A stretch of DNA of 64,000 bases, taken from the NCBI GenBank assembly GCA_036399915.1, contig DASWME010000013.1, forward strand, positions 1,724 to 65,723, in the 5' to 3' direction. Shown one piece after another: positions 19,316 to 53,391 of this stretch (positions are counted from its first letter, which is position 1; the number at the start of each line of letters is the position of its first letter). The DNA comes from Thermoanaerobaculia bacterium (lineage in GTDB: Bacteria; Acidobacteriota; Thermoanaerobaculia; Multivoradales; UBA5704). The translations under genes were made by a program, and so were the position numbers. The notes under the pieces are model-generated. The model was given only the letters and a program-made list of their open reading frames with translations, had not been told where the DNA came from and searched no databases.

Positions 19316-20049
19316 CTACGAGTTTCTCCAAACCATGGTGATGCCTTCGCAAAGAGAACTGGGCAGGAACCGGTAGGCAGCGTTCTTCAGAGACCCCAGG
19401 ATCACCTGTCGTCCTACGGTCTCACCGGATTCCCCATGCGCGAATCTTGCGTCGAAGTAAAATGACATCGTGCATTCCTCGATCCGAAATCCTACCTCTG
19501 AAGCTAACTCGAGGAGCTCTTTTCGCGTGTACTCCCGGAATGGCCAGGGTTCTGCCGATCCACCCGGATCATCTCGAACGGGTTCCGTCCGAGAAGCAGC
19601 TTCAATCTTTTGGGCAAGGAGGCGGCGTTGGGAATTTGTAGGACAATACACCCATCGTCAACCAACAACGCTCGAACGAAACTTAGCGCAAACTGAGGCG
19701 CCGTGTAAAGATGGTCGAGAACTTCGGCCATCACCACAAAGTCATATCTGGGGAGATCCCGGCGCCAGGTCTCCGTCCGCTGGGTGAGGTTCAGGTCAAA
19801 CCCGAAGTGCCTGCCTTCGGGCGTCACTCGATCCTCTCCGAATCCCAGCGAATCGACTGCGATGCCAAACCGCTCGTGGATCAGCGCCGTCAACCGTGAC
19901 GGACCGATATCCAAGAGCGTCGAACCGGGTCCAACACCGTACCTGTCCAGGATCTCCAGCAGGTACGCGTAGCGGGGCGCGTGATAGGCGACGTAACCTT
20001 GATCCTCGCCATGGATGGCGGCCGCTGAGGGACCTCGCGCCTTTCGCAT
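19316..20049 (-). pseudogene. Class I SAM methyltransferase split by a 1-bp frameshift
   Basis: LLDIGP, DFVVMAEVLDHL, IPNAAS..NPGH in one frame, FREYTRKELL in another; CAT-TTC lost one T near 19540. Confidence 0.75.
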
Positions 20050-20261
20050 CTTTGGAGATCCTACCCCACCCTGCCTCCCCTGGCGGGTTGGCGGCCGTGG
20101 GTCTGGGCACTCACCCATCCCGAGCGCCTCCTAGAGAGGATGCAGAGCGCCGCGAACGGAAAAGGTGGTCCGGCGGACCATAGCCTATGCGCCTTGGCGG
20201 GAGGGAGTCTCCAGCCCGCCCGCTCCATGCGACAGTACGGCCGCACTCCAGGAGGAATTCG

Positions 20262-21425: not shown

Positions 21426-21447
21426 GCGGCCTTTGGCATGCGTGGCC

Positions 21448-21676
21448 TGACCTGCAGGGCAAGCCGCGTGCCCTTCAGGTCAAAGAGCCTGCCCTTCGGG
21501 TCAAGCGGCGTGCCCTTCAGGTCAAGGCCCTGACCTGCAGGTCAAGCCGCCTGCCCTTCAGGTCAAAGGGCCTGCCCTTCAGGTCAAGCGGCGCGCCCTT
21601 CAGGTCACGCCCATGACCTGCGGGTCAAGCCGCGTGACCTTCAGGTCAAAAGGCCTGACCTTCAGGTCAAGAGGCC
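21448..21676. repeat. Tandem array of 11 units (21 bp; units 4 and 8 are 20 bp) with TG(A/C)CC-N4-GGTCA core
   Basis: Units read directly, e.g. TGACCTGCAGGTCAAGCCGCC; 83-bp higher-order period. Confidence 0.95.
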
Positions 21677-21810
21677 TAGGGTCTGAAGAAGATTTGAGCC
21701 TGCCAGGGCCTGCAATGGCTCTTTGCGGAGAAGGATGGGCATTCCCCTTTCTCTATTCACAATGCACCCCTCTCTGGCTATACTTTCGGGCCAGATCGGC
21801 AGCGCTTGCG

Positions 21811-34368: not shown

Positions 34369-36957
34369 TTACGGATAGATCCCCCGCGACACCCGCGCCT
34401 TGAGCCCCCGCTTCACCCGCACCTCGACCGGCCGGAACCCATTGGGGTCCGCCGGTCGGTCGGAGCTGTAGGCCAGGAAATAGCGGCTGCGCAGCTCCTC
34501 GCTGATGCGGCCGTAGACGCCCGCCAGCTCCTCGGCGCGGTCGATGAAGAAGGCCCGGCCGCCGGTCGCCTCCGCCAGCTCGGCGAGCTTGCTCCTGGCA
34601 CCGAGCTTCAGCTCGGAGAGGCCGAGCCCGATCGTATAGATGGCGACGCCGCTCCGGCGGGCGTAGGAGAGCGCGTCCTCCCAGGAGGTGCTGCTGAAGG
34701 TGTCGTCGCCGTCGGTCAGCAGCACCAGGGCGCGCTGCCCCCGCTCGGCGCGGAAGTAGTAGAGGGCGGTGATGACGGCGTCGTAGAGCGCCGTGCGGCC
34801 GAACGCCCGCAGGCCCTCCAGCGACAGGCTCACCGCCTCGGCGTCGTCCACCGGCGGTATCAGGAGCACAGGGCGGGAGGAGAAGCCGAGAGTGAAGCAG
34901 CGGTCCTTCGGGGTGAGCAGGTTGTGCACGAAGCCGGCGGCGGCCCGCTCGGCCTCGGCCAGCGAAGATGCCATCGAGAAGGAGGTGTCGATGGCGATCC
35001 CCAGCGACAGCGGCAGGTCCACCTGCTCGAAGCGGACGATCTTCTGCGGCCTGCCGGCCTCGAGCACCTCGAAGTCCGACGCCGGGAGTCCCCGCACCGG
35101 GTGGCCGGAGGAGTCGAGGACCGTGGCGAAGAGCTCCACCAGGTCCACCTCGACCTCGCCCAGGTTGGCCGGCGCGCGCAGGAAGCGCACGTCCTCGGCC
35201 TGGCTGCCGTCGTCGAGCCGCGCCATGACGGTGAGATAGGCGAGGTCCCCTGCGGACGGCACCTCGATCTCCCGCTGCCAGGGGGGGTCGGCGAGGGTGG
35301 CGACCGTGCGGTCGTTGACGCGGAACTCGACGCTCTCGACCCGCCGCTCCTCGGGCACCACCACCTCGGCCCGCGCCAGGACCTTGCCCGCCGCGCGGCG
35401 GCCCCGCGGCGGATCGGTGATCAGCACCCGCAGCCGGCCGCGCGCCTGGTTGAGCACCACCTGGTCCCAGGCCACCAGGCCGCCTTCGGCGTCGTAGCCC
35501 TCGACGCGCACCACCTGCTCGTGGGGGACCTCGGCCAGCCGCAGCTCGGCCGAGTAGGGCGGCCGGGTGCGCGAAAGCTGGGGCTGGCCGTCCACCAGGA
35601 AGGCCACTCTGGCGATGCGGCGGCCCGAGACCACCGCCTCGGCCCGCCAGACGCCGAGCACCACTTCGGAGGGGGGCGGTACCAGCAGCAGCGTGTCGGG
35701 CCCGGTGACGCCGCCCGGCCGCACCGTCTCGCCGCCCAGGGCCCTGGCCGTCAGCTCGGGGGAGATGTGCCGCTCCGGCCGCTCCGGGACACGGAAGCCG
35801 CGGACGACGGCGGTCTCGGCGCCGCTGGTCTCGTCCCTGACCCGCAGCCGCAGCACGAAGCTCTGTCCCGGGCGGAGCGCCCGCTCCAGCAGCAGGGCGG
35901 CGGGCGCGCCAGGCGCTGGCGGCGGCACCTGGTAGCGCACCCGGAAGTCTTCGAAGACGGCGTCTCCACGCTCGACGACGCCGTCGACGGTGAGGCGCAC
36001 CCGCTGCCGGCCGCCCCCGGTGTCCGCGGCCGCCATGCCGGCGGCGGACGGCAGGCTCAACAGCGCGCGGGCGAGGAGGCGCTGGCCCTGGCGGGAGGGG
36101 AAGTCGAGGTCCAGCCCGCCCAGCTCCAGGGGCTCCGGCGCGGGCGGCAGCGGCGTCGCCGCCGCCTCGCGGGCCCAGGCGGCGAGGCCGGGGGGACCCC
36201 ACAGCAGCGCGATCCGGTTCTCCGGACGCACCCAGCGGAAGTCGCGGGCCGCCTCCGCCGGGCGGTCGCTGGCGCCGTAGGTGGCGGCGCTCAAGTCCTG
36301 CGTCGTGCCGTCTCCCAGTCCGTCGATCCCGGTGACGCGGTCCACCCGCTTGGAATCGGGGCAGAAGAAGCGGTCGAGGCGCTTGCCGGGCAGGCGCGCC
36401 AGGTCCGCCTGGAGGAGCCAGAACTCCATCTCGCTGGTGTAGAGGGCGCGCTTCGAGTCGATGGGCAGCCAGAGCCGGAACGGCTCGTCCGAGGAAGGGC
36501 GGTAGAGGATCAGCTCCTTCGCGGCGCCGTCCACGGTTGGATAGGACCAGATCTCCAGCGGCTTGAAGGCGGCGGCGCAGTCCACCACCCGCCGCTCCGC
36601 CGGCCGGCCGCGCAGGAAGACGAGCTGGGCCCGCGCGTCGCGCGGCGAGGGGAACTCGCCGGCCACGAGGCGCCGGCGGCGCTCGATCCCCTGGCGCAGC
36701 TCGTTGCCGGGCGTTTCGGGGATTGGATCCCGGTCGAGGAATTCGCGGATGAACCGCTCGCGCCCGGCTTCGTCCAGGGCCGCCAGCGCCTGGCGCTGCT
36801 CGGGCGGGAGCAGCAGCCCCGGACCGTCCTGGAAGAACGCCCGCTGCGGCTCGGGCCAGAGGGTGGGGTCGGAGGGAGAGGGCGATTGGGCGAGGGCGGG
36901 GAGGGCGAGGAGGAGAAGGGAGAGGCCGATCCGGCCGGGGGAGTGAGGGCCCCTCAC
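34369..36957 (-). CDS. Exported VWA-domain protein (GWxTD-like N-domain, Ig-like modules), paralog 1
   Basis: RDP.PETPGNE..R, LEIWSY; MIDAS DTSFSM / T / LLTDGDD. Confidence 0.85.
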   Translation of the reverse strand: MRGPHSPGRIGLSLLLLALPALAQSPSPSDPTLWPEPQRAFFQDGPGLLLPPEQRQALAALDEAGRERFIREFLDRDPIPETPGNELRQGIERRRRLVAGEFPSPRDARAQLVFLRGRPAERRVVDCAAAFKPLEIWSYPTVDGAAKELILYRPSSDEPFRLWLPIDSKRALYTSEMEFWLLQADLARLPGKRLDRFFCPDSKRVDRVTGIDGLGDGTTQDLSAATYGASDRPAEAARDFRWVRPENRIALLWGPPGLAAWAREAAATPLPPAPEPLELGGLDLDFPSRQGQRLLARALLSLPSAAGMAAADTGGGRQRVRLTVDGVVERGDAVFEDFRVRYQVPPPAPGAPAALLLERALRPGQSFVLRLRVRDETSGAETAVVRGFRVPERPERHISPELTARALGGETVRPGGVTGPDTLLLVPPPSEVVLGVWRAEAVVSGRRIARVAFLVDGQPQLSRTRPPYSAELRLAEVPHEQVVRVEGYDAEGGLVAWDQVVLNQARGRLRVLITDPPRGRRAAGKVLARAEVVVPEERRVESVEFRVNDRTVATLADPPWQREIEVPSAGDLAYLTVMARLDDGSQAEDVRFLRAPANLGEVEVDLVELFATVLDSSGHPVRGLPASDFEVLEAGRPQKIVRFEQVDLPLSLGIAIDTSFSMASSLAEAERAAAGFVHNLLTPKDRCFTLGFSSRPVLLIPPVDDAEAVSLSLEGLRAFGRTALYDAVITALYYFRAERGQRALVLLTDGDDTFSSTSWEDALSYARRSGVAIYTIGLGLSELKLGARSKLAELAEATGGRAFFIDRAEELAGVYGRISEELRSRYFLAYSSDRPADPNGFRPVEVRVKRGLKARVSRGIYP

Positions 36958-39506
36958 GGGTAATACCCCCGCGCCGTCCGCGCCTTGAGGCCTCCCTTCT
37001 TGAGCTTGACGTCTACCGTACGGAACCCGCCCTGGCCGCCGATCTCGGTGGAGTTGTAGGCCACCAGGTAGCGGCTGCGCAGCTCGTTCTCGATCTGCTT
37101 ATAGATGCCCGGCAGCTCCTCGGCGTTGTGGGTGAAGAAGACCCGGCCGCCGGTAGCCTTGGCGAACTCCTCGAGCTTGGCGTGGACCGCGGCCTCGAAC
37201 GGCGGCAGGTTGAGACCGATGGCGTAGATGGCGACCCCGCTCCTGCGAGCGTACTCCAGGGCGTCCTTGTAGTTGATGTTGCTCGCGTTGTCGTCGCCGT
37301 CCGAGAGCAGCACCAGGGCCCGTTGACCCTGGACGCCGCGGAAGTAGTAGAGGCTGTGCACCAGGGCGTCATGCAGCGCCGTATCGCCCACGGCCTGGAG
37401 CCCTTCGATGGCCTGCACCACGGCGCCCACGTCGTCCGTGGGCGGCATCTCCAGCCGCGGCCGGCGGGCGAAGCTCACGGCGAAGGCCTTGTCGCGCGGC
37501 GTCAGGACGCCCTCCAGGAACCCGGCGGCGGCCTTCTGCGTGTCCACCATGGAGCCGGCCATGGACCCCGAGGTGTCGATCAGCACGCCGACGACCAGCG
37601 GCAGGTTCTGCACCAGCTCGAACTTGGCGATCTCCTGCGGCTTGCCCGACTCGTAGACCTCGAAGTCCTCCTGCTTCAAGTCGCGCACGAGGTTGCCGGA
37701 GCGGTCCGTCACCGCCACGTACAGCTCCACCAGGTTGACGTCCACCTCCGACACGTACTGCGGCGACTTCAGGTAGCGCACGGCCTCGGCCCGGGTGCCG
37801 TCGTCCAGGGTGGCCAGCACCGTGAGGTAGACGAGGTCGGCGTCGGCCGGCACGGAGACCTCGGCCTGCCACGGCGGCTTGGTGAGGGAAGCCACCGCAC
37901 GGTCGTTGACGCGGAACTCCAACGACTGGATGCGCCGGCCGTCGGGCACCACCACCTCGGCGCGGGCCAGGGTGCGCCCCTGGACCTTGACGCCCTTGCC
38001 CGGCGAGACGATGCGCACGTTGAAGGCGCCGCGCGGCTGGTTGAGGATCACCTCGTCGGCGGCCACCAGCTTGCCCTCGGCGTCGTACCCCTGGGCACGG
38101 ACGGTCTGCTCGGTGGGGAAGCGCTCCAGCCGCACCTCGACCGCGAAGGGGCGCCTGGCGACGGTGAGCTGGGGCTTGCCGTCCACCAGGAACGTCACCT
38201 TCTGAATGCGCTCGCCGGTCACGATCGCCTCGGTACGCCAGAGCCCCACCAGGATGTCCTCGGCCGGCGGCAGCAGGATCAGGCTGTCCGGGCCGGCCAC
38301 GGTTGAGACCGGCACCAGCTCGCCCGAGGCGGCGTTGGCGGGCCTGGGCTCGGGCGTCGGCTCCGACGGCACCCGGAAGCCCCGCGAGATCCTCGCTTCG
38401 CCGCCGCCCACCTCGTCATGGACCTTGAGCCGCATCACGTAGTTCGACTTCGGGCGCAACGGCCGGTCGATGGCCAGCACGACCGGCTCCCCCGGCTTCG
38501 GGACGGGGTGCTGGAAGCGCATCCTGAAGTCTTCGAGCGGCTGGCCTTCCTGCTCCACCAGCCCCTCGACGATCAGGCGGATCCCCGGCTTGCCCTCCTG
38601 GACTGTCTTGAACCCGGCATCCGCCGGCAGGGTGACCAGGGCGCGGGTCACCAGGCGCTGGCCCTCGCGGTCGGGGAAGCGGAGCTCCGCCGAGGCGACC
38701 TTGAGGTCCGGCGACGGCGAGGGCAGCTCGGTGGCCGCGGCTTCGCGCGCCCAGCGGGCGAGGTCGGCCGGCGGCGCCAGCAACGGGGAAGCGTCCTTCG
38801 GCCGGACCCGCACGCCTCTGCCCGCGTGGGCCCCGGTCAGTCCGGGAACGCCGGTGGCCTGGTCGACGGTCTTCGCCTCCTTGCAGTTCTGGAGGTCGAA
38901 GCGCACGGCGCGGAACGTCTTGCCATGCTGCTCCTCCCACTGCTCGAGCCAGTACTCCATGAGCGGCGTGTAGAGCGCCCGCTTCGAGTCGCTGGGCAGC
39001 CAGAGGCGGTAGGGCTCCCCCTTGCCGGGCGTGTAGACCACGGCCTGCCGCTGCAGCGGCTTGCCGTCCGGGCCGATCCCGCCGCCGCGGTAGGTCCAGA
39101 CCTCCAGCGGCTTGAAGACCGCGCCGCAGTCCACCACCCGCCGGTCCTCGGGCATCCCGTTCAGGAACAGGAGCTGGGCCCGCACGTCCCGCGGCGAGAG
39201 GAACTGGTCCTCGGCCAGCCGCTGGCGGCGCGCGACGCCTTCGCGCAGCTCGTTGGCCTTGGTCTCGGGGACCGGGTCGCGGTCCAGGAACTCCCGGATC
39301 CAGCGGGCCCGCGCCTCGGGGTTGAAGCTGCGCAGGTCGGTGCGCTGCTCCGGCGTGAGGAGCAATCCGGGGCCGTCCTGGAGGAAGGCCCGCTCCGGCT
39401 CGGGCCAGAGGGTCGGATCGTTCTCCTGCAGGCCCTCGGCCCCCAGGGGCGCGAACGGGAGAAGGATGAAAAGGAGGAGGAAGAACAGCGGGATCCGGTA
39501 TCTCAC
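36954..39506 (-). CDS. Exported VWA-domain protein (GWxTD-like N-domain, Ig-like modules), paralog 2
   Basis: Colinear with paralog 1; DTSGSM, TALHD, LLSDGDD. Confidence 0.85.
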   Translation of the reverse strand: MRYRIPLFFLLLFILLPFAPLGAEGLQENDPTLWPEPERAFLQDGPGLLLTPEQRTDLRSFNPEARARWIREFLDRDPVPETKANELREGVARRQRLAEDQFLSPRDVRAQLLFLNGMPEDRRVVDCGAVFKPLEVWTYRGGGIGPDGKPLQRQAVVYTPGKGEPYRLWLPSDSKRALYTPLMEYWLEQWEEQHGKTFRAVRFDLQNCKEAKTVDQATGVPGLTGAHAGRGVRVRPKDASPLLAPPADLARWAREAAATELPSPSPDLKVASAELRFPDREGQRLVTRALVTLPADAGFKTVQEGKPGIRLIVEGLVEQEGQPLEDFRMRFQHPVPKPGEPVVLAIDRPLRPKSNYVMRLKVHDEVGGGEARISRGFRVPSEPTPEPRPANAASGELVPVSTVAGPDSLILLPPAEDILVGLWRTEAIVTGERIQKVTFLVDGKPQLTVARRPFAVEVRLERFPTEQTVRAQGYDAEGKLVAADEVILNQPRGAFNVRIVSPGKGVKVQGRTLARAEVVVPDGRRIQSLEFRVNDRAVASLTKPPWQAEVSVPADADLVYLTVLATLDDGTRAEAVRYLKSPQYVSEVDVNLVELYVAVTDRSGNLVRDLKQEDFEVYESGKPQEIAKFELVQNLPLVVGVLIDTSGSMAGSMVDTQKAAAGFLEGVLTPRDKAFAVSFARRPRLEMPPTDDVGAVVQAIEGLQAVGDTALHDALVHSLYYFRGVQGQRALVLLSDGDDNASNINYKDALEYARRSGVAIYAIGLNLPPFEAAVHAKLEEFAKATGGRVFFTHNAEELPGIYKQIENELRSRYLVAYNSTEIGGQGGFRTVDVKLKKGGLKARTARGYYP

Positions 39507-41698: not shown

Positions 41699-43270
<1,572 letters not shown>

Positions 43271-43275
43271 AGCGT

Positions 43276-43830
43276 CCGCCGGCGCAACGACAAGGCCTGC
43301 CCGCGCAGTCGGTGGATCCGCCGGCGCGGCGAGGACGTCCGCCGGCGCCGCGACACCTCCCGCCTGCAGCTCGACGAGGCCCGCCCGCGTAGCTGGTTCA
43401 TCCGCCTGCGCAGTTGGTCGAACCGCCCGCGTCTCGACAAATCCCGCCTGCAGCTCGACAAGGCCCGCCGGCGCGGCGAGAGCGTCCGCCCGCGTCTCGA
43501 CAAGGCCCGCCTGCCTGGCCGGTTGATCCGCCCGCAGCTCGACGAGGCCCGCCTGCGCAGTTGGTTGACCCGCCGCTGCAGGCGGGAGGACAAATTGCTC
43601 AGGCGGTAGGCCCGCCTGCTCAGGCGGCTGAGCAAATGACCCAGGCGGAAGGCCCGCTTGCCCAGGCGGGAGGACAAATTACTCAGGCGGCTGAGCAAGT
43701 TACGCAGGCGGGAGGACAAACTGCGCAGGCGGGAGAACAAATTGCGCCGGCGGTTGGCCAAATTCCTCGGGCGGACGAGCCAGCTGCGCAGGCGGGAGAA
43801 GAAATTGCGCCGGCGGTAGGCCCGCCGGCG
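43276..43830. repeat. Bipartite 21-bp array: 15 CCGCCNG-core units then 12 inverted CNGGCGG-core units
   Basis: Cores fall exactly every 21 nt (43276...43570; 43579...43810); the two cores are reverse complements. Confidence 0.92.
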
Positions 43831-43881
43831 CCGGCACGAGAAAGGAATGACAAGCGCGCCTTCGAAGGCCTGGCCCCCGGC

Positions 43882-44991
43882 TCAGGCGAAAGGCACCGGG
43901 CTCACGCGGACGCCCTGCAGCCGGAACGCCCGCCGCAGTTCCGGGGCCAGGAAGCTCCACTGACGGCGGTCCAGCCGCCCGGCCGCGGCGTCCTCCGCAT
44001 AGATCGCCAACGCGCCCAGCGCCAGGTCGAGGCCCGGCCGGCCCGCGAAGCGCGTGGCCAACTCCTCCACAGGGGCGCTCAACTCCCCGCCTCTCCCCAG
44101 CTCCCTCAGCACGAGCCCCAGATCGATCGTCGCCAGAGTGGTTTCGGGAAGCAGGCGCCGCGCGATCAGCTTGCGCCGCACCGCCTCCAGCAGGGGCTCG
44201 GCCGCCGCGACCTCGCCCGCGCCTGCAGCCACCCGGCCCTCCATCCAATACAGGGCGAACAGCGCCTTCTCATGGCGCACCCCTCCGTAGAGCCTCCAAG
44301 CGCTCTCGCGGGCCTGCCTCGCCTTCGCGGCCTCGCCGGCTGCCGCGAAGCAGAGCGCCAGGCCCAGGCCGCTGCGCACGGCCAGCCAGGCCTCCCCCGC
44401 GCGCTCCAGCGCCCGCCAGGCCCGCCGCAGCAGCGGCGCCGCCCACCCCGTCTCGCCCTCCTCCACATACAGCAGGCCGAGCAGCGCCCGGCACGCCTCC
44501 TCCTCCTTGCCATTCTGCGCCTGGCCAAAGAGCTGCAAGCCGTGGTGCAGCAGCGCGGCGGCTTCCGCGGTGCGCCCCTGGTCCCAGCGCAGCAGGCCCA
44601 GGGCGCGGCAGAACCGCCCGCGGCCCGCGGCTTCGAGCGTAAGGTACTGCGCCCGCTCCAGAAGGGCTTCCGCGGTTTCGACGTGGCCCATCAGCCGGCG
44701 CGCCGTGGCCGTCAGGCACAAAGCGCGCGCCAGGCCCTCGCTCTTGGCCGCGGGCGCGAGCCTGCCGCGTGTGCCCAGCCGCACGCAGAGCTCCGCCCCC
44801 AGGGTCGCCAGCTCGTTGGCCCGCCGCGGCGCGAACGGCAGCGCGGCCTGCGCTTCCTCCAGCACCAGCTCGTAGAGCTCCAGGCTGTGAAAGCGCTCCT
44901 CCTTTACGCGCTCCATCCGCTCCTCCCCGGCACCCGCCATGAGCTCGCCGAGCAGGCGCACCGTCTGTGGCTTCGATTTGGGAGGGCTCAT
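43882..44991 (-). CDS. TPR-like protein without HTH (related to 20262-21425)
   Basis: LTATARRLMG, LGLLRWDQG, LYWMEGRVAA, LATIDLGL; ATGA-coupled to the upstream gene. Confidence 0.8.
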   Translation of the reverse strand: MSPPKSKPQTVRLLGELMAGAGEERMERVKEERFHSLELYELVLEEAQAALPFAPRRANELATLGAELCVRLGTRGRLAPAAKSEGLARALCLTATARRLMGHVETAEALLERAQYLTLEAAGRGRFCRALGLLRWDQGRTAEAAALLHHGLQLFGQAQNGKEEEACRALLGLLYVEEGETGWAAPLLRRAWRALERAGEAWLAVRSGLGLALCFAAAGEAAKARQARESAWRLYGGVRHEKALFALYWMEGRVAAGAGEVAAAEPLLEAVRRKLIARRLLPETTLATIDLGLVLRELGRGGELSAPVEELATRFAGRPGLDLALGALAIYAEDAAAGRLDRRQWSFLAPELRRAFRLQGVRVSPVPFA

Positions 44992-45218
44992 TCTTCGTCC
45001 TCAGAGGCGGCCGCGCTGAGGTCGTCGATGGCAGGCACGACCAGATCGATGAGCACGCAGCCGATCACGTCGCGCAGCTCCGGCTCCACGTCCCCCAGGC
45101 GCACCCCGTGCTCGGGTTGCGGCGGCAGGGCTGCGGAGATGCGCTTCAACCGGTCGCGGATCGCATACAGGTCCTGCACCACCTCGCGGAGTTGCTCCCG
45201 CGCCTCGGCCTCGGTCAT
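44988..45218 (-). CDS. Small helical 'PAIDDL' protein (paralog of 13359-13604)
   Basis: LYAIRDRL...LRDVIGCVLIDLVVPAIDDLSAAA. Confidence 0.7.
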   Translation of the reverse strand: MTEAEAREQLREVVQDLYAIRDRLKRISAALPPQPEHGVRLGDVEPELRDVIGCVLIDLVVPAIDDLSAAASEDEE

Positions 45219-45631
45219 CTGGCTTTCCTGTGGAAGGGGAGGACGGCCCGCGGCCGCCGCAGACCCTTGGGCCCGGCCGGCACCGGCTCGGGCTCTTCGC
45301 CGTGGAGAAGGCGCAGCACCGCTTCGATGTTCGCTTGCGCGCTCTGCAGCTCCGCGATGATCTCCCTCGCCAGCTCCTCCGGAGTCTCTTCGCCGAGGTC
45401 CTCCTCCGGGGCGGGCCGCACGAACTGGTGGATCTCCGCCAGCGCGCCGGCCGCGCCCAGACCCCACAACCGACGCGTCACCCGCAGGCACCGCGGGCAG
45501 CCGCTCAGTAGGTGGCGCACCACGGCGCGCGCCTCGGGACCAGGCAGGCTGGCGCGCATGAAAAGCTCCAGGTCCCTCTCCTCAGGATGGCGGGTTGGCG
45601 CGGATCGGAGGCTCTCGCCCGGGATGATCAT
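45215..45631 (-). CDS. zf-HC2-like zinc finger protein (paralog of 13604-13846)
   Basis: HPEERDLELFMRA...EARAVVRHLLSGCPRC..TRRLW.LG. Confidence 0.7.
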   Translation of the reverse strand: MIIPGESLRSAPTRHPEERDLELFMRASLPGPEARAVVRHLLSGCPRCLRVTRRLWGLGAAGALAEIHQFVRPAPEEDLGEETPEELAREIIAELQSAQANIEAVLRLLHGEEPEPVPAGPKGLRRPRAVLPFHRKAR

Positions 45632-45806
45632 GTTCCGCGCGATTGTGGCGGCTCGGCGGGACCGTCAAGACATCACTTAGGAGATTGGCGAACCTTTGAA
45701 TACAATACGCGGGTAGCGCCCGGGAGTGTCGCCTCCGCCGTGTCACGTCCCACACGCCGGAGGCACCGAGGTACTGTGGAGCCCTTCCTTCCATGGAGAT
45801 CGTTGC

Positions 45807-47279
45807 ATGCCGCGCAAGCTCACGTTCCGGCAGCTTCTCCTGTCCATCCTGGCGCTCTGGCACGACGTCAGCCAGAAGGAGATGGCCGCCGCCGCCGGCA
45901 TGTCCCAGAGCCGCGTCTCCCAGCATCTGAGCCGCGAGCGCGGCGGCGAGATCAAGGACGAGGACTTCGAGCGCCTGCTGGCGGCCCTGAAAGCCAAGCC
46001 CGCGGAGGTGCGGCTGGTGACGGCCTGCCTCGAAGGCCTCGACGCCCTGGAGGCGTCCGAGGACCTCACTGAGGAGGAGCGGGCCGAGATCGAGGAGGCG
46101 GCGCTCGCCGCCGCGCGCTTCGCCCGCGAAGGCCTCACCGAGGCCGTCCGCCGCTCCCGGACGGTGCCGGTCGAGGCCTACCCCGAGCCCCAGCAGGTCA
46201 AAGTGGCCCGCCGCCGGGCCGAGGAGCAGTGGCGGCTGTTGGCGGACCTTCCGTCCGAGGCCAGGCTGGCCGTGGTAAGCGTGGCCGCGGAGTTCCAGAA
46301 CTGGGCGCTCTGCGAAAGAATCTGCGCCGAATCCACGCAGCGAGCGTCGCGCAGCGTCGAGGAGGCGGCAGACCTGGCGCGGCTCGCCGAGGCCATCGCG
46401 GAGCAGGTCCGCGGACCCGAGGGCTGGCGCCTGCGGGTCCAGAGCTACGCCAGCGCGCACGGGGCGAACGCCCTCCGCGTCGCCGGCGAGCTGAGGGCGG
46501 CAGAGGCTGGCCTCGAGAGGGCCAGGCGGCTCTGGCACGCGGGCTCAGATCCCCATGGGCTGCTCGATCCCGGCCGGCTGCTCGACCTGGAGGCGTCCCT
46601 GCGCCGGGATCAACGCCATTTCGCCGAGGCCCTGGCCCTCCTCGACCAAGCCGCGGCCGTGGGCCGCTCCCCCGGGCGCGTCCTGATCAAGAAGGGGTTC
46701 ACGCTGGAGGTCCTGGGCGAGTACGAGCGCGCCATCGAGGCCCTCCTCAGGGCGGCACCCCTGGTGGAGCGCCAGGGCGATTCGCGGCTGCTCTACATGC
46801 AGCGCTTCAACCTGGCCGTCCTCTGCTGCCATCTGGGCCGCTTCTCCGAGGCCACCGAGCTGCTGGACCAGGTGCGGGACCTGGTTACGGAAAGAGGCGA
46901 CGCCATCGAGCTCAACCGCGTGACCTGGCTGGAGGGCCGCATCGCCGCCGGGCTGGGCCGGCCGCACGAGGCTCTCCGGCTCCTGAGGCAGGCCCGGGAG
47001 AGGTTCGCCGCGGAGAGGATGTCGTACGACGTGGCCCTGGCGCTGCTCGAAGAGGCGGTGCTCCTCCTGGACCAGGGCCGTGCTGCCGAGGTCAAGGTCC
47101 TGGCCCAGGAGCTGACCGAGGTGTTCCAGTCGAAAGGAGTGCACCGCGAGGCCCTGGCCGCCCTGCGGCTCTTCAAGGATGCGGCGGACCAGGAAACCGC
47201 CACGGCCGCGCTGGCCCGCCGGGTCCTCGCCTACCTCTTCCGGGCTCGCCACGACCACGGCCTGCGGTTCGAGTCATGA
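45807..47279 (+). CDS. XRE-HTH + TPR regulator, copy 2A
   Basis: VSQKEMAAAAGMSQSRVSQHL HTH; TPR body with WALCERIC, ANALRV, LLDLEASL. Confidence 0.9.
   Translation: MPRKLTFRQLLLSILALWHDVSQKEMAAAAGMSQSRVSQHLSRERGGEIKDEDFERLLAALKAKPAEVRLVTACLEGLDALEASEDLTEEERAEIEEAALAAARFAREGLTEAVRRSRTVPVEAYPEPQQVKVARRRAEEQWRLLADLPSEARLAVVSVAAEFQNWALCERICAESTQRASRSVEEAADLARLAEAIAEQVRGPEGWRLRVQSYASAHGANALRVAGELRAAEAGLERARRLWHAGSDPHGLLDPGRLLDLEASLRRDQRHFAEALALLDQAAAVGRSPGRVLIKKGFTLEVLGEYERAIEALLRAAPLVERQGDSRLLYMQRFNLAVLCCHLGRFSEATELLDQVRDLVTERGDAIELNRVTWLEGRIAAGLGRPHEALRLLRQARERFAAERMSYDVALALLEEAVLLLDQGRAAEVKVLAQELTEVFQSKGVHREALAALRLFKDAADQETATAALARRVLAYLFRARHDHGLRFES
46210..47279 (+). repeat. About 1.07-kb direct repeat of 47982-49051 (shared TPR-coding region)
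   Basis: Gapless at offset 1772, roughly 90% identical by eye; 5' HTH regions unrelated. Confidence 0.9.
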
Positions 47280-47507
47280 GCAGGGTCGGCCGTCGGGGTC
47301 CATGCCGCAGCCTGCCTCAATCTCGGGCCCAGGCTGGGGAGCGGTGTTGCAGTGGCCGCTGGGGTCCATCCCGCAGCCTTCCTTGGTGGACGATCCGCTG
47401 CCAAGCAAGGACAGAAACGTCCGGAACGGGCCGAGGAGGTCGGGCCGGGGGCCCGGCGAGGTGAGGAGGGAGGAGGCAAGGGCCAGGGCGACGAGGATGC
47501 GTTGCAT
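47274..47507 (-). CDS. Secreted peptide precursor with two GCGMDPxG cores (peptide P2)
   Basis: MQRILVALALASSLL...; cores KEGCGMDPSGHC and EAGCGMDPDGRPC; shares the TCATGA stop palindrome with 2A. Confidence 0.8.
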   Translation of the reverse strand: MQRILVALALASSLLTSPGPRPDLLGPFRTFLSLLGSGSSTKEGCGMDPSGHCNTAPQPGPEIEAGCGMDPDGRPCS

Positions 47508-47623
47508 GGGATCATCTCCTGCGCGGCGCCCGGCCGCGGCCGCCATGGCTCGCGCGGGCCGCGCCCGTAATCTTAGGTGTGGGGCCGGCGAAAATTCGCC
47601 AATTTCCTAAGTGGGGGGATCGG

Positions 47624-49051
47624 ATGAGACGAGAGCATCTGCTGGCCCGCCTGCTGCGGGCGGTCTCCGGCAAGACCCAGGAGCAGTTCGGCGAGGAAAC
47701 CGGCGTGCACCCCTCCCTCATCGCCTTGATCGAGCTGGGGAAGGCCACGCCCGGCCGCGACCTTCTGGAGCGAATGGCGCGCTGCGCCTCGATCTCCCTG
47801 CCGGACGCCGACGAGGTCCTCGGCTCGTACGAGACGCTCCGCAGGACGCCCCAAAGGCAGGGCGGTGGTGTGGAGGACCTCTTCCGCGAGATCACGGAGA
47901 GGTTCGATACCTGGGCCAGGGCTGCCTACGGCCGTCTCCTGCGCCTCCCCCTGCCGGACCAGTCGCCGCGGGAGGAGGATCGCCGCCGGGCCGAGGAGCA
48001 GTGGCGGTTGTTGGCGGATCTCCCATCAGAGTCCAGGCTGGCGGTGGTGCGCGTGGCCGCGGAGTACCAGAACTGGGCGCTCTGCGAAAGGGTTTGCGCC
48101 GAATCGACGCAGCGAGCATCGAGCAACGTGGAGGAAGCGACGGCCCTGGCACGCCTCGCCGAGGAGATCGCGGAGCGGGTCCGCGGCCCCGAGGCCTGGC
48201 GCCTGCGGGTCCAGGGCTATGCCAGCGCGCACGGGGCGAACGCGCTGCGCGTCGCCGGCGAGCTGAGAGCGGCGGAGGCTGGCCTCGAGAAGGCCAGGCG
48301 GCTCTGGCACGCGGGCTCGGACCCCGAGGGATTGCTCGATCCCGGCCGTCTGCTCGACCTGGAGGCGTCCTTGCGCAGAGATCAACGCCGCTTTGCCGAG
48401 GCCCTGGCCCTGCTCGACGAAGCCGCGGCCGTGGGCCGCTCCCCCGGGCGCGTCCTGATCAAGAAGGGATTCACGCTGGAGGTCATGGGCGAGTACGAGC
48501 ACGCCATCGAGACCCTCCTTCAGGCGGCGCACGTGGTGGAGCGCCAGGGCGATGCGCGGCTTCTCTACATGCAGCGCTTCAACCTGGCCGTCCTCTGCTG
48601 CCATGTGGGCCGCTTCTCCGAGGCCACCGAATTGCTGGACCAGGTGCGGGACCTGGTTACGAAAAGGGGCGACGCCATCGAGCTCAACCGCGTGACCTGG
48701 CTGGAAGGCCGCATCGCGGCGGGCCTGGGCCGGCCGCACGAGGCCCTACGGCTCCTGAAGCAGGCGCGGGAGAGGTTCGCCGCGGAGAGGATGTCGTACG
48801 ACGTGGCCCTGGCGCTGCTGGAGGAGGCGGTGCTGCTCCTGGACCAGGGCCGCGCTGCCGAGGTCAAGGTCCTGGCCCGGGAGCTGACCAGGGTGTTCAA
48901 GTCGAAGGGAGTGCACCGCGAGGCCCTGGCCGCCCTGCGGTTGTTCAAGGATGCGGCGGACCAGGAAACCGCCACGGCCAGGCTGGCCCGCCGGGTGCTC
49001 GCCTACCTCTTCCGGACCCGCCACGACCCCGGCCTGCGGTTCGAGTCATAA
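47624..49051 (+). CDS. XRE-HTH + TPR regulator, copy 2B
   Basis: KTQEQFGEETGVHPSLIALIELG HTH; TPR body near-identical to 2A. Confidence 0.9.
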   Translation: MRREHLLARLLRAVSGKTQEQFGEETGVHPSLIALIELGKATPGRDLLERMARCASISLPDADEVLGSYETLRRTPQRQGGGVEDLFREITERFDTWARAAYGRLLRLPLPDQSPREEDRRRAEEQWRLLADLPSESRLAVVRVAAEYQNWALCERVCAESTQRASSNVEEATALARLAEEIAERVRGPEAWRLRVQGYASAHGANALRVAGELRAAEAGLEKARRLWHAGSDPEGLLDPGRLLDLEASLRRDQRRFAEALALLDEAAAVGRSPGRVLIKKGFTLEVMGEYEHAIETLLQAAHVVERQGDARLLYMQRFNLAVLCCHVGRFSEATELLDQVRDLVTKRGDAIELNRVTWLEGRIAAGLGRPHEALRLLKQARERFAAERMSYDVALALLEEAVLLLDQGRAAEVKVLARELTRVFKSKGVHREALAALRLFKDAADQETATARLARRVLAYLFRTRHDPGLRFES

Positions 49052-50977
49052 ACCGGGGTTGCACCGGCCGTTGACACCACCTACATCTACGACGACCCCG
49101 CGGTGCCGTTGTCCAAAGGCCGCCTGACGAAGATCGCCAGAAGCGGCTCCGAGGTCGCCTACGCCTACGACCGCTTCGGAAGGGTCACCCAGGATGGCGA
49201 GCTGACCTATCGATACGACCAGAACGGCAACCGCGCCGAGATCGGCTATCCTGGAGGGGTGACCGCGCGCTTGACGCACAACTTCGCCGACCGGGACGCC
49301 TCGCTGGAGGTGCAGGCGGGGAGCGCGGCCCCGCAGGCGATCGTTTCCGGCGCCCGCTACAAGCCCTTCGGCCCGCTCGCCGGCTTCACCTTCGGTAACG
49401 GCCTGGCCGAGATCCGGAGCTTCGATCCGCGCTACTTCCCCAGCCGCATCGAAGTGCCGGGGCGGTTGGACCAGCTCTACTCGACCGACAGGGTCGGCAA
49501 CGTTCTCAGCCTCAACCGGGCGGTGGGAGCGGACCGCTTCTTCTCGACCTTTGTCTATCAAGATCCACAGTACTTCTTGACCGAAGGCAACGGCCCCTGG
49601 GGACGGCGGGCCTGGAGCTACGACCGCATCGGCAACCGACTGAGCGAGATCCCCCCGGTCGACCTCGATCCGCCGGTGGAGATCTTCACCTACTCCTACC
49701 CCTCCAACCAGGCGGGCGGCCATAACCCCAAGCTGTCACGTATTGAACCGGCGCCGGGAGGAGAGCCGGGGAGCCATTTAGATTACGGCTACGATGCGTC
49801 CGGCAACGAGACCACGGTAGCCGCAGTCACCGGCGAAGAATCGGGCCGGACGAGCTTCCTTACGTACAGCGCCGAGAGCCGCCTCTCCCGGCTCTCGACG
49901 AGCGATGGGACGGCTTCGACCGAGCTGCTCTACGATGGCCGCGGGTTCCTGCGGCGCTCCCGGCTGACCTTCTCGAACTCCACTGACTTCGAGCAAACCG
50001 AGCCCACCTACAGCTCTGAAGGGCTGCTGTTAGCTCGCAAGATCCACCAGCAGAACACCCGCGGCGGGCGAGGAGATACGGGAGCCCCACCCTCGAGCCG
50101 AGTCGTCATGGAGACGGCCTACCTCTTCTACTTCGCGGGCCGGCCGGTGGCGCAGTTGACGCGACCGCAGGCGGGAGGGGGAGCGGATACGCTCCTCTAC
50201 CTCACGACCGATCATTTAGGCACGCCTATCCAGGCCACGGACGTGGCGGGCATGCTCGTGTGGGAGGGAGGACTCGATCCGTTCGGCACGCCGTTCGTTT
50301 TCCCTGCCCCCCGGCCTCCAGGGGAGGGTGAAGACCCGCAGGAGCCGCCCGAAGGTGAAGATCAGAGCGCCGCAGCCACGGCAACGATGGAGAGCGCAGG
50401 GATTTTCCTACGCTTCCCCGGCCAGTGGGATGACTCGAGTTTCCGCTCGCATGGTTTGCGGGGAGGGTTGTATTACAACGTGCACCGTTACTACGACGTG
50501 AGCACAGGCCGGTACACGAGGCCGGATCCGATTGGGCTGGCCGGCGGCGAAAACCTATATGTGTACGTCGGCGGAAACCCGATCACGTCCGTAGATCCAA
50601 CGGGCTTAATCGACGAGACTCGCTTCCCCACGCCCGACGAGATCGCCGAACTAACGCAGCGTCACTGTGCTCGCCAGGCCATTCTGCGGAACTACGGCGA
50701 CATGCGAGAGGCAAACTGGAGGCGCTCTGACAAGTACTTCCACTGCAAAGCAACCTGCGAGGCAGCAAGGTGTGGCACATTCGGCTTCAAGGAGGCTTGT
50801 GGGCTCGGCGACTTGCGCGAGTTCTTCGACCGACTGTTGGGAGATCCGATCAGCGCCTCGCAGGCGGATCAAGCGGCTAACCGTTTTGGCCGTGAGGAAG
50901 CGGGCAGGAAACCGAACTTGACTTGCCAGATTATCTGTTCGCAATATCGGCCGGCAGGCTTGCCGGAGAGGTACTGA
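49052..50977 (+). CDS. N-terminally truncated (orphan) RHS/YD-repeat protein with serum amyloid A-like C-terminal tip
   Basis: YD repeats (YAYDRFGR, YRYDQNGNR, WSYDRIGNR), DHLGTP, LRFPGQ, YYNVHRYYD, PDPIG...NP...DPTG core end; first possible start GTG 49103. Confidence 0.9.
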   Translation, partial: TGVAPAVDTTYIYDDPAVPLSKGRLTKIARSGSEVAYAYDRFGRVTQDGELTYRYDQNGNRAEIGYPGGVTARLTHNFADRDASLEVQAGSAAPQAIVSGARYKPFGPLAGFTFGNGLAEIRSFDPRYFPSRIEVPGRLDQLYSTDRVGNVLSLNRAVGADRFFSTFVYQDPQYFLTEGNGPWGRRAWSYDRIGNRLSEIPPVDLDPPVEIFTYSYPSNQAGGHNPKLSRIEPAPGGEPGSHLDYGYDASGNETTVAAVTGEESGRTSFLTYSAESRLSRLSTSDGTASTELLYDGRGFLRRSRLTFSNSTDFEQTEPTYSSEGLLLARKIHQQNTRGGRGDTGAPPSSRVVMETAYLFYFAGRPVAQLTRPQAGGGADTLLYLTTDHLGTPIQATDVAGMLVWEGGLDPFGTPFVFPAPRPPGEGEDPQEPPEGEDQSAAATATMESAGIFLRFPGQWDDSSFRSHGLRGGLYYNVHRYYDVSTGRYTRPDPIGLAGGENLYVYVGGNPITSVDPTGLIDETRFPTPDEIAELTQRHCARQAILRNYGDMREANWRRSDKYFHCKATCEAARCGTFGFKEACGLGDLREFFDRLLGDPISASQADQAANRFGREEAGRKPNLTCQIICSQYRPAGLPERY

Positions 50978-50986
50978 GGGTTGGCG

Positions 50987-51142
50987 ATGTCGAAATCACC
51001 GCGTGTCCTTTCGTTGGCCATTCTCGCGGCGTTGGTGGTCGCGGCGGTCATCTTTACGTGGCTTTGGCGGCAGCTTCAGATCGATAGGTGTCTTGACCGC
51101 GGAGGCAGTTGGGATTACTCCGCGGGTGCGTGCAAGCAGTAG
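50987..51142 (+). CDS. Candidate immunity protein, 51 aa, single TM + Cys pair (below ORF-track cutoff)
   Basis: Own translation MSKSPRVLSLAILAALVVAAVIFTWLWRQLQIDRCLDRGGSWDYSAGACKQ; GAGG upstream; 9 nt after the RHS stop. Confidence 0.7.
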   Translation: MSKSPRVLSLAILAALVVAAVIFTWLWRQLQIDRCLDRGGSWDYSAGACKQ

Positions 51143-51216
51143 CAATTGCGGCTTCTGCGGTAGGATGGGGCAAGACACCCATGGGACCGCTACCTTGATC
51201 AGGCACGCTGGGACTG

Positions 51217-51312
51217 ATGGCCGCTGTAGCCAGCGGCGAGGGCTCAGGGCGGACGAGTTTCCTCGACTACAGCGCCGAAAGCCGCCTCTCCCGGCTCTCG
51301 ACGAGCGATGGA
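51217..51312 (+). pseudogene. Relic fragment of a second RHS core
   Basis: Encodes SGRTSFLDYSAESRLSRLSTSDG vs SGRTSFLTYSAESRLSRLSTSDG at 49817-49909. Confidence 0.8.
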
Positions 51313-52210: not shown

Positions 52211-52333
52211 GGCCCGACCGCGGCCGCCTGCGCCAGGCCGCGGAGATCCCGGACGATCTGGGGCTCAGCCCGACGTTCGTGCCGTTCCTGACGATCGAGG
52301 CGTACGGGTACCTGGATTAGAATGTCCGCCGGC
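52211..52333 (+). repeat. Right copy (attR-like): orphan 3' end of malate synthase
   Basis: Encodes [34 protein letters not shown] vs ace[35 protein letters not shown]. Confidence 0.9.
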
Positions 52334-52398: not shown

Positions 52399-52746
52399 AT
52401 GCATGGCAAGAAGACCCCGGCAGTCCTCTGGTTGACGGTTGCACTCCTGGGGCTGGTGGCCACGGGCTGCGGCAAGGGATACAAGCAGATCGTGGTCATC
52501 GACAGCGGGGCGGCGGAGTGGGTGACCCTCGGGAGGGGTCCCAGGAAGCCACAGGAGGAGAAGATCTGGGTCCCCGGCAGAACCCTGGTCTTCCGCACGG
52601 ACTCGACGGTTCCGGGCGCCCCGACCAGCGCCAAAGGCAAGGCCGGGCACGTCTACCGGCTCAACGACCAGTTGGAGATGGAGGAGATCGGCGAGTTTCC
52701 GCTCACCATGCCCAACGACACGCTGGCGTACCAGTACGGGACTTGA
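52399..52746 (+). CDS. Putative lipoprotein
   Basis: Signal peptide with lipobox VATG-C; AGGAGG RBS. Confidence 0.7.
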   Translation: MHGKKTPAVLWLTVALLGLVATGCGKGYKQIVVIDSGAAEWVTLGRGPRKPQEEKIWVPGRTLVFRTDSTVPGAPTSAKGKAGHVYRLNDQLEMEEIGEFPLTMPNDTLAYQYGT

Positions 52747-52877
52747 GGGCGGCCGCGCTCTCCTCCCGGTCGTCGGACGGCGAGCCCTGCGCTGGCGGCC
52801 AGGTTCTCCTCGGCATAGACCTTGGTGGAGCGGCGCGCGGATGGAGCGCCTCCTCCGGGAGCGGTATACTGCGAGGC

Positions 52878-53108
52878 ATGTCACCCACGGCTGAAGAGGT
52901 GCTCAAGCAGGCGCTCACGCTTGATGAGAGCGATCGAGCCTCGGTCGCCGGAGCCTTGATCGAGAGCCTCCACGAGCAGGTGGATCCGGACGCCGAAGAG
53001 GCCTGGGACGCGGTAATCCGGCGACGGGTCGAGGAGTTGGAGTCGGGAGCCGTTGAGACGATTCCTTGGACCGAAGTGAGGAAGCGTCTGTTCCGTGGCT
53101 TCGAGTGA
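52878..53108 (+). CDS. Putative addiction module antitoxin (TIGR02574-like)
   Basis: AL.L...DRA..A..LIESL...AW...I.RR..EL.SG....IPW.EV. Confidence 0.85.
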   Translation: MSPTAEEVLKQALTLDESDRASVAGALIESLHEQVDPDAEEAWDAVIRRRVEELESGAVETIPWTEVRKRLFRGFE

Positions 53109-53391
53109 GCTACGTTGGCATCCCGCAGCGCTTACGGATGCAGAGGAGGCGAGGAGCTGGTACGCGGAGCGCAGTCCCTTGGCCGCCCGCGGGTTCCTCC
53201 TTGCTCTCGATCAGGGCATCAAAGCGATCCTGGAGGCGCCGGAACGCTGGCCCAAGCATCGCTACGGATGCCGGCGCTATGTCTTCCCGAATCAGTACCC
53301 GTACACGCTGATCTATCGGCTCACGCCAGGCGTTGAAATCGTCGCGGTGGCCCATCAGAAGCGGCGGCCTGGCTATTGGAGGCACCGTTGA
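53095..53391 (+). CDS. ParE/RelE-family toxin
   Basis: HPAA..D..EA..WY, PERWP, FPY.LIYR, IVAVAHQKRRPGYW; overlaps the antitoxin. Confidence 0.85.
   Translation: MASSELRWHPAALTDAEEARSWYAERSPLAARGFLLALDQGIKAILEAPERWPKHRYGCRRYVFPNQYPYTLIYRLTPGVEIVAVAHQKRRPGYWRHR

Follow-up and report, generated by a model that had tools for sequence, protein, structure and literature searches.

The 64,000-nucleotide stretch of Thermoanaerobaculia contig DASWME010000013.1 analysed here (the window; a metagenomic contig of 70% GC, ENA ERZ27253115 k141_281227, also JGI 3300034402) contains an intact six-gene cassette at 43882-49051. At its centre lies the gene of a short, putatively secreted peptide precursor, P2, between the genes of two regulators, R2A and R2B, each of which joins an N-terminal helix-turn-helix (HTH) head to a tetratricopeptide repeat (TPR) superhelix; the remaining genes encode a small zinc-finger protein, a 76-aa protein (sm76) and a TPR-only paralogue. 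We propose that the cassette is a self-contained, autoregulated RRNPP-like peptide-sensing circuit of Gram-negative Acidobacteriota (Thermoanaerobaculia, Holophagales), and we give this reading an even chance of being correct. The analogy with known peptide-TPR regulators is supported by comparative evidence from sequences and predicted structures. Because the homology test failed, membership of the RRNPP family itself is not established.

The original prediction, made from the sequence of the window, had described the regulators and the peptide gene at this place (locus 2). Its gene content and order are borne out, with two extra small genes within the same coordinates; the open reading frame (ORF) listing, in-window tblastn and public gene calls are concordant. 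Both regulators are intact, as had been stated, and of family-normal length, A-type homologues measuring 486-492 aa and B-type ones 478-481 aa. In GC the cassette is host-like. Below, RA and RB denote the A- and B-type regulators of any locus, and loci from our genome scan are numbered with the prefix L.

The peptide precursor and its family

The sequence of P2, MQRILVALALASSLLTSPGPRPDLLGPFRTFLSLLGSGSSTKEGCGMDPSGHCNTAPQPGPEIEAGCGMDPDGRPCS, runs from a basic N-terminus through a hydrophobic stretch and an amphipathic pro-region to two Cys-bracketed DPxG cores (GCGMDPSGHC and GCGMDPDGRPC), the second of which stops 1 residue short of the stop. A word-index search from the two peptides of the window recovered 22 proteins, and a hidden Markov model (HMM) scan found 1,922 cluster representatives of the family at E <= 1e-3, 853 of them at E <= 1e-10. 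Among 165 family members, precursors carry 2-5 cores (commonest 3), and 443 of the 515 cores have the form C-x-[ILMV]-D-P-x-G-x-C. A median of 4 residues follows the last motif. The N-terminus is signal-like in 160 of these 165 members (hydropathy heuristic), and an L...W amphipathic element is present in 136. Loci from the genome scan also include Cys-less core variants (EGPGLDPSG, AGAGADPNG, EGFGWDPSG); the invariant unit is therefore G-x-G-x-DP-x-G. Many of the Cys-less precursors terminate exactly at ...DPNG or ...DPFG, and endings exactly at ...DPNG fit the release of short C-terminal units.

Selection and translation signals agree with this picture. The pN/pS of the peptide family is 0.43 (15 pairs), and the Shine-Dalgarno (SD) sequence GGAGA is kept 6-10 nt ahead of the peptide ATG across loci. 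Comparison of family members shows the 77-aa gene to be a conserved, evidently translated precursor with a predicted Sec-type signal peptide, whose putative functional units are the short C-terminal repeats. A reading of the peptide as a bacteriocin or a ribosomally synthesised and post-translationally modified peptide was rejected: near the cassettes there is no recurrent modifying enzyme, exporter or immunity gene. The HMM scan also returned P0257, a signal-peptide protein of 731 aa in which x-[ILM]-DP-N-G-[RK] is repeated ~25 times; the DPxG unit therefore also occurs away from the cassettes, in a long repeat protein.

Domain structure of the regulators

R2A matches Pfam TPR_12 (E = 7e-12) and, weakly, Sigma70_r4 (E = 0.002) and HTH_3. 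It has at least 1,520 homologues, named merely TPR protein or hypothetical; PF04545 is precomputed on several of them, and one is named a sigma-70 family protein by NCBI. R2B matches HTH_31 (29.2 bits, cut-off 27), HTH_3 (26.2 bits, cut-off 23) and TPR_12 (E = 3e-10). An N-terminal HTH, as in RRNPP receptors, is thus found above curated cut-offs in R2B and, for R2A, as an HTH-like helical head in the structural model. In the AlphaFold2 models of R2A and R2B (pLDDT 89.8 and 88.5), a long linker helix joins a small helical head to an all-alpha solenoid of ~8 TPRs. Pfam, AlphaFold2 and Foldseek all identify a TPR-type superhelical domain, the fold of RRNPP receptors.

In a Foldseek search against the PDB, the peptide-binding TPR domain of LGN/Pins ranks first (E about 3e-6). 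The best bacterial matches are all RRNPP receptors: RapJ-PhrC, RapF, RapI, RapH and PlcR-PapR. For R2B and RapJ-PhrC (4gyo) the values are E = 1.7e-5, TM 0.64 and rmsd 5.5. The regulators of the window have no RRNPP-specific Pfam or NCBIfam match. Asn residues are conserved in the A helices (N221 invariant, N335 nearly so).

Co-variation of receptors and peptide cores

Within a locus, the TPR domains of RA and RB have a median identity of 78% (91% for R2A and R2B), whereas an RA TPR domain shares ~60% identity with the RB of other loci. The heads, unlike these within-locus-homogenised TPR domains, sort into two orthologous types. TPR A helices line the concave groove of the superhelix. With the A-helix register taken from the Pfam TPR_2 match and DSSP, we examined the 120 columns that vary between loci and found greater within-locus RA = RB agreement at the 34 A-helix columns (excess agreement 0.41 versus 0.27 for the rest, p = 4.5e-6), alignment columns not being independent of one another. 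A helices also hold 19 of the 30 most specificity-like columns (p = 3e-6, with the same non-independence), which cluster at R2A residues 290-295, 329-341 and 368-376.

Peptide-core distance correlates with TPR distance when the head is controlled for (partial r = 0.30, permutation p = 0.0005) but not with head distance when the TPR domain is controlled for (r = -0.11); partial Mantel tests are liberal under shared ancestry, and the head is shorter and so noisier. The parallel with Rap-Phr and arbitrium drawn in the original prediction holds up on this comparative evidence: the regulators are predicted cytoplasmic HTH-TPR proteins, Rap and PlcR are their closest bacterial structural matches, the precursor is conserved, and peptide and TPR domain co-vary.

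Control regions

The 19-nt box CACTTAGGARATTGGCGAA occurs in exactly two copies in the 64 kb (0.00 expected), one upstream of R2A and one upstream of the peptide gene. We compared the two control regions of each of 65 loci with a mismatch-tolerant score over 18 nt, exact longest-common-substring comparison being too insensitive. Of same-locus pairs, 28% share an 18-mer at >= 14/18, versus 6.5% of pairs across loci; at >= 16/18 the figures are 7.7% and 0.1% (p = 8e-5). This enrichment of shared boxes suggests an operator, specific to each locus, through which the RA and peptide/RB promoters are coupled, a coupling typical of autoregulated loops.

The control region between the peptide and RB genes (116 nt) is conserved between loci with only ~60% protein identity. 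Read on the peptide strand, it contains an AT-rich dyad, the -10-like TAAGAT, a ~44-nt hairpin or dyad, the SD and the ATG. In the leader hairpin 86% of cells are paired versus 28-46% with partners slid, and 11 pairs show compensatory changes versus 5.2 +/- 1.5 in shuffles (0/500); at locus 1 the outer stem is fully compensated. With RNAalifold alone the consensus of the leader was weak (-4 kcal/mol), and the covariation values required a hand-specified structure. Rfam has no match anywhere in the window, leader included. The hairpin may act in the RNA, as a new cis-regulatory leader, or in the DNA, as an operator. Its position is homologous in about 60 loci.

Most of 75 RA upstream regions carry GTGTCACG-N15-19-GCAC, 40-70 nt before the RA start codon. 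The element departs from the sigma-70 consensus and could serve as a promoter for an alternative sigma factor or as a target of the sigma-4-like RA head. A scan of 43.2-49.2 kb for sigma-70 consensus promoters gave no match, and the promoter elements named here are candidates drawn from cross-locus conservation only. The AT-rich dyad was dropped as a regulon marker, having a single strong site in the window.

Distribution and synteny of the cassettes

A scan of GTDB species representatives yielded 222 stretches that encode relatives. The best 80 of these loci are all in Acidobacteriota metagenome-assembled genomes (Thermoanaerobaculia, Thermoanaerobaculaceae, Holophagales), not in Bacillota or their mobile elements, where RRNPP systems are found. 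Genomes often carry >= 3 diverged cassettes with different cores, which matches orthogonal pherotypes. The family might be viewed as a phylum-wide, multi-copy pheromone system in which Sec-exported precursors would give rise to disulfide-looped C-x-[ILMV]-D-P-x-G-x-C nonapeptides and these, once re-imported, would act on two paralogous cytoplasmic TPR receptors, one of them gated by an anti-sigma-like zinc-finger protein; we place this wider claim somewhat below an even chance.

The order RA (+), peptide (-), RB (+) is almost invariant, with RA and peptide convergent and peptide and RB divergent. A motif-bearing ORF on the opposite strand ends within 60 nt of the RA 3' end at 64 of 66 RA genes; together with the signal-like N-termini of 160/165 precursors, this gives the receptor an adjacent secreted-propeptide ORF of the kind that marks RRNPP systems. 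The peptide-RB unit is repeated in L010, L034, L040 and L063. About half of the loci have a zinc-finger gene upstream of RA in divergent orientation, a count limited by the sensitivity of tblastn for such short genes. TPR-only genes occur at about ten loci, L006 and L007 having theirs at the equivalent position. The zinc finger, sm76 and sometimes the TPR-only gene are the sole partners that travel with the regulators and the peptide.

The flanks of the cassettes are heterogeneous. In 37 loci, 148 flanking proteins fall into 146 Pfam families, of which GNAT (5), HTH_3 (5) and protein kinase (3) recur most; integrase, relaxase, phage and toxin families are absent from the 25 most recurrent ones listed. 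RHS genes adjoin the cassette in 2 of ~85 loci, the window and L006 only. We found no relatives among 2.9 million viral contigs (IMG/VR) or PLSDB plasmids, and no PHROG or PADLOC signal. Two loci have neighbours of the mobile-element type, which are not the rule elsewhere. In L006 (1-4988, 12908-16240) these are an RHS/Tc toxin of full length with Peptidase_M91 at its tip, ArdC-N and several genes for XRE HTH proteins; in L007 (214-6005, 15784-16044) RadC, DUF6094 and Replic_Relax lie beside the cassette.

Accessory proteins

The zinc-finger protein carries the motif HP..L.RF..G....E.R.VVRHLL.GC..C..VTR.LW, which resembles anti-sigma (ZAS) domains, and its H-x4-C-x2-C is invariant in 21 sequences. 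It has no Pfam match. Among its 686 homologues, mostly of 56-85 aa, one is named RsiW by JGI. The best PDB profile match is the anti-sigma factor RslA with SigL region 4 (3hug_B; E = 0.14, not significant). The sm76 protein is fused to a zinc-finger domain in L003, L017, L021 and L022, and locus 1 of the window contains an sm76 paralogue. The ZAS-like motif, the sigma-4-like RA head and the divergent gene arrangement together suggest that the zinc finger/sm76 antagonises RA. The TPR-only protein is ~28% identical to the TPR domain of R2A and R2B and has no Pfam, NCBIfam, PHROG or PADLOC match.

Genomic context of the cassette

Locus 1 (13.4-16.9 kb) has the order of locus 2 (sm76, zinc finger, R1A, peptide, R1B), as the original prediction had noted and as coordinates and in-window tblastn confirm; it is diverged and partly broken. 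Since R1B breaks off near residue 300, locus 2 is the intact copy. The two peptides are indeed distinct alleles, with a full-alignment identity of 47% (44% over a 57-aa tblastn segment) and cores of GC[RQ]IDPSG at locus 1 versus GCGMDP[SD]G at locus 2. R1B is truncated by a low-GC (58-63%) insertion at 16871-20118, probably a second island, which holds a 768-aa ORF with no Pfam match, a methyltransferase-like gene (-) and a tRNA-Arg(CCT) at 19778-19851. The TPR-only gene at 20187-21425 was considered as the lost C-terminus of R1B and rejected, since its identity to the regulator TPR domain is only 28%. Coordinates of the main features of both loci and of the surrounding island are given in the table.

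Table. Features of locus 2, the aceB island around it and locus 1 (window positions)
Feature	Position	Strand	Remarks
TPR-only paralogue, 369 aa, no HTH	43882-44991	-	ORF listing, tblastn, gene calls
sm76, 76-aa protein	44988-45218	-	Gene calls; 4-nt overlap with each neighbour gene
Small zinc-finger protein	45215-45631	-	ORF listing, tblastn
19-nt box CACTTAGGAGATTGGCGAA upstream of R2A	45674-45692	+	Second copy at peptide promoter
-10-like TACAAT upstream of R2A	45701-45706		8 nt after 19-nt box
Element GTGTCACG-N15-19-GCAC(TCA), candidate R2A promoter/operator	45740-45767	+	Cross-locus conservation
Regulator R2A, 490 aa, sigma-70-region-4-like HTH, linker and TPR	45807-47279	+	
Peptide precursor P2, 77 aa	47274-47507	-	Convergent with R2A, 6-nt overlap
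Peptide leader: SD GGAGA, then GC-rich imperfect hairpin/dyad	47515-47519; 47521-47564	-	
-10-like TAAGAT of peptide gene	47570-47575	-	
AT-rich dyad GGCGAAAATTCGCC	47587-47600	-	Shared peptide/R2B control region
Second 19-nt box copy, upstream of peptide gene	47595-47613	-	
Regulator R2B, 475 aa, XRE-type HTH and TPR superhelix	47624-49051	+	
Left direct-repeat copy, functional aceB 3' end	43163-43283	+	
Two opposite-orientation blocks of 21-nt tandem repeats	43255-43860		TRF; repeat families D1, D3, I2
Terminator-like hairpin after TPR-only gene, 10 G-C pairs then T-rich tail	43807-43831	-	
RHS fragment, 624 aa, N-terminally truncated	49103-50977	+	Starts 52 nt after R2B
53-aa ORF after RHS fragment	50981-51142		
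RHS remnant, 114 nt	51199-51312		
Right direct-repeat copy, displaced aceB 3' end, island's right edge	52213-52333	+	
Locus 1 zinc finger	13604-13981	-	
R1A	14032-15534	+	40% identical to R2A
Locus 1 peptide	15539-15850	-	
R1B	from 15998	+	Stops at about residue 300, at start of low-GC insertion

Locus 2 lies within a delimited island at aceB, as had been proposed: 121-nt direct repeats, 84% identical and derived from the target gene as expected of an integrative island, bracket 9.05 kb. The displaced aceB 3' copy still encodes protein residues. No integrase or recombinase was found in any ORF between 43284 and 53300. A metagenome scan with AceB for an empty site returned closest relatives <= 70% identical; L094 keeps the upstream synteny only, its downstream genes differ, and unfiltered tblastx of it gave high-GC noise only.

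The right half of the island is lower in GC, and the GC3 of the RHS fragment is below that of the cassette. The fragment has RHS repeats from residue 5 and the core TIGR03696 (E = 2e-18); its tip (residues 526-624) matches the serum amyloid A family PF00277 (E = 3e-23), unusual at the toxin position of an RHS protein. As for the RHS toxin/immunity pair of the original prediction, an RHS fragment and a small ORF are present, but the N-terminal part of a full-length polymorphic toxin is missing and the RHS is just a 624-aa C-terminal piece. Two divergent small HTH genes in the island do correspond to the cI/cro-like switch described there.

At the left edge of the island, the two blocks of 21-nt repeats occupy the spacer from the aceB stop to where the TPR-only gene ends, and this spacer has a folding z = -5.0. 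Whether the blocks belong to the cassette is uncertain. Strict tandem arrays with a 21-nt period (also 42 or 63) and 5-15 copies number 42 in ~1.25 Mb of Acidobacteriota loci; their units differ in every array, often with a short palindrome, and 12 of them are found no more than 400 bp from the edge of a cassette, a zone that makes up 6.9% of sequence. Those of the window, at 43255-43860 (two inverted blocks) and 21444-21677, both directly follow TPR-only genes. Further arrays include L030:7158-7421, L048:9713-10025, L073:11188-11439, L078:10016-10649, L082:10199-10692 and L087:10690-10960.

To the right of the direct repeat, 52399-53300 encodes a 115-aa lipoprotein and an Unstab_antitox/ParE toxin-antitoxin pair, followed by housekeeping genes (UbiA, DUF92, epimerases, LptD). 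Elsewhere in the window, tandem paralogous VWA-domain genes (862 and 850 aa) at 34369-39506 produce the repeat families D6-D8, D10 and D13.

Proposed mechanism and alternative explanations

In the circuit that we propose, the precursor would be exported and cut into short peptides. These would probably close into disulfide loops while in the periplasm, build up outside the cell and then be taken up again. Inside, they would bind the concave groove of the TPR superhelix in both RA and RB and alter the action of the two regulators on the shared 19-nt box, giving feedback on the peptide and RB genes as well as on the RA, zinc-finger and sm76 genes. The ZAS-like zinc-finger/sm76 protein is a probable antagonist of RA, whose sigma-region-4-like head it would bind, and the TPR-only paralogue may serve as a decoy or a Rap-like partner.

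Several points weigh against this reading. Public sequencing runs with the locus comprise two DNA runs (soil and biocrust metagenomes) and no RNA run. Re-import of the peptide would have to cross two membranes, and no protease, exporter or oligopeptide permease co-travels with the cassette. In the PDB profile search RRNPP receptors are insignificant (NprR 5dbk, E = 0.11; RapI 4i1a, E = 0.13) and stand behind generic TPR proteins; likewise, the structural likeness to RRNPP is that of generic TPR superhelices, with eukaryotic LGN scoring best. The co-variation of receptors and peptide is confounded by phylogeny, gene conversion between adjacent paralogues and unequal domain lengths, and the DPxG core is unusually conserved for a pheromone that carries specificity. 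The anti-sigma assignment of the zinc-finger protein, finally, rests on E = 0.14 and one source annotation.

The peptide could instead be the output of the system. RA and RB would then sense another cue (a protein, a metabolite or the zinc finger/sm76) and switch on a secreted, disulfide-looped effector; an antimicrobial, adhesive or metal/Ca-binding mini-protein would be an example. This is the main rival to our reading, and we regard it as unlikely but deserving serious attention. The strong conservation of the core across loci would suit an effector, protein binding is common for TPR domains, and the ~25 xDPNG repeats of P0257 place the motif in structural contexts too; we also take the G-x-G-x-D part of the core to resemble Ca-binding turns such as those of RTX repeats. 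An effector leaves other observations poorly accounted for: no immunity, export or maturation gene accompanies the cassette, the cores co-vary with the TPR and not the HTH domain, the within-locus co-variation of the receptors is concentrated in groove-lining helices, and the many precursors that end exactly at ...DPNG fit release of a short C-terminal unit. A further alternative is an intracellular partner switch of the sigma/anti-sigma type, in which the zinc finger/sm76 would sequester the RA head, TPR domains would mediate contacts among RA, RB and the TPR-only protein, and the peptide would be a co-regulated passenger. The co-variation of peptide and TPR domain is left unexplained by such a switch, and no other element of the cassette is as rigidly fixed in position as the peptide gene, the zinc-finger, sm76 and TPR-only genes having been detected in a subset of loci only. 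The ZAS-like motif with RslA bound to sigma-L region 4 as its top PDB match, the homologue called RsiW, the Sigma70_r4 match of the RA head, the zinc finger-sm76 fusions in several loci and the HTH-less TPR paralogues do fit it, but all the similarities among them are below significance, and we consider both the switch and the TPR-mediated contacts improbable.

The original prediction favoured density-dependent control of the aceB island; the target would be the RHS toxin with its immunity gene, the cI/cro-like pair, or the element's excision and transfer. The position of the cassette between the 121-nt direct repeats and of the RHS fragment, on the same strand 52 nt past R2B, invites this view, as do the RHS toxin and ArdC near the cassette in L006 and RadC, DUF6094 and Replic_Relax at L007. 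Across loci the association dissolves. RHS adjacency is confined to 2 of ~85 loci, the 148 flanking proteins are spread over 146 Pfam families with no mobility or toxin family in the 25 most recurrent listed, and viral or plasmid relatives and PHROG or PADLOC signals are lacking in the collections searched. Within the island no integrase was found, the RHS gene is truncated, of lower GC and accompanied by a 114-nt remnant (51199-51312), and the 19-nt box is confined to the cassette's own promoters. The heterogeneous flanks, the rarity of RHS neighbours and the lack of viral or plasmid relatives therefore leave control of the toxin, the cI/cro-like pair or island mobility unsupported, and a switch of this kind has in our view a slim chance.

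Should the peptide-sensing circuit be real, it would either have evolved RRNPP logic independently or be very distantly related to the RRNPP systems, and genetically encoded peptide quorum sensing with cytoplasmic receptors would reach beyond Bacillota, into diderm bacteria. Acidobacteriota, poorly cultured so far, rank with the most abundant phyla of soil; a conserved multi-copy analogue there would offer a handle on the social behaviour of the phylum and a new orthogonal family of peptides and receptors. We know of no described RRNPP counterpart to the dual-receptor design with its anti-sigma-like accessory. The system is open to test, with short synthesisable ligands, soluble receptors that have confident models, and defined candidate operator boxes.

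Comparison with known systems

The aceB segment resembles integrative islands at gene 3' ends in the 121-nt repeat that brackets its 9.05 kb and in a low-GC right half with toxin and HTH cargo; it differs from them in that no integrase or excisionase was found in it and in the host-like GC of the cassette. The zinc-finger protein has a likeness to the ZAS proteins that pair with ECF sigma factors (RslA-SigL, PDB 3HUG): its H-x4-C-x2-C follows L..F..G....E...V, like the N-terminus of zf-HC2, and its likely partner RA, encoded divergently next to it, has a sigma-70-region-4-like HTH. The spacing is H-x4-C versus H-x3-C in ZAS, the protein has no transmembrane or sensor domain, RA, with no region 2 and with TPRs joined to its head, is not a sigma factor, and the similarity is insignificant (E = 0.14). 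With LGN/Pins the regulators share an eight-repeat superhelix, which in LGN binds extended peptides in its inner groove, and conserved Asn residues in the A helices; this similarity is of fold only (13-16% identity), and LGN is a eukaryotic scaffold without an HTH.

In RRNPP systems the mature peptide is re-imported by the oligopeptide permease and alters the activity of its receptor. The cassette departs from the RRNPP(A) systems (Rap-Phr, NprR-NprX, PlcR-PapR, PrgX, Rgg-SHP, AimR-AimP) in its host, which belongs to a Gram-negative phylum (the window has an LptD gene), and in having no significant sequence or profile similarity to them. It has two receptors per peptide with unlike DNA-binding heads (sigma-4-like and XRE), a Cys-bracketed DPxG core, conserved accessory genes (zinc finger, sm76, TPR-only) and a fixed convergent/divergent geometry, with no phage or plasmid association. 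RRNPP systems have been described as a feature of Bacillota (PMC10075063, PMC11343458), and our literature search found no paper mentioning RRNPP together with Acidobacteria. Multi-copy pheromone propeptides are known for the Rap, NprR, PlcR and AimR systems (PMC9765709, PMC11343458), and multi-copy units in the propeptide, along with several diverged cassettes per genome, are among the features that the cassette has in common with them. The others are a predicted cytoplasmic TPR receptor that has its HTH at the N-terminus in the manner of PlcR, NprR, Rgg and AimR, an adjacent propeptide gene with a Sec signal and the putative active unit at or near its C-terminus, and a palindromic box in the cassette's own promoters.

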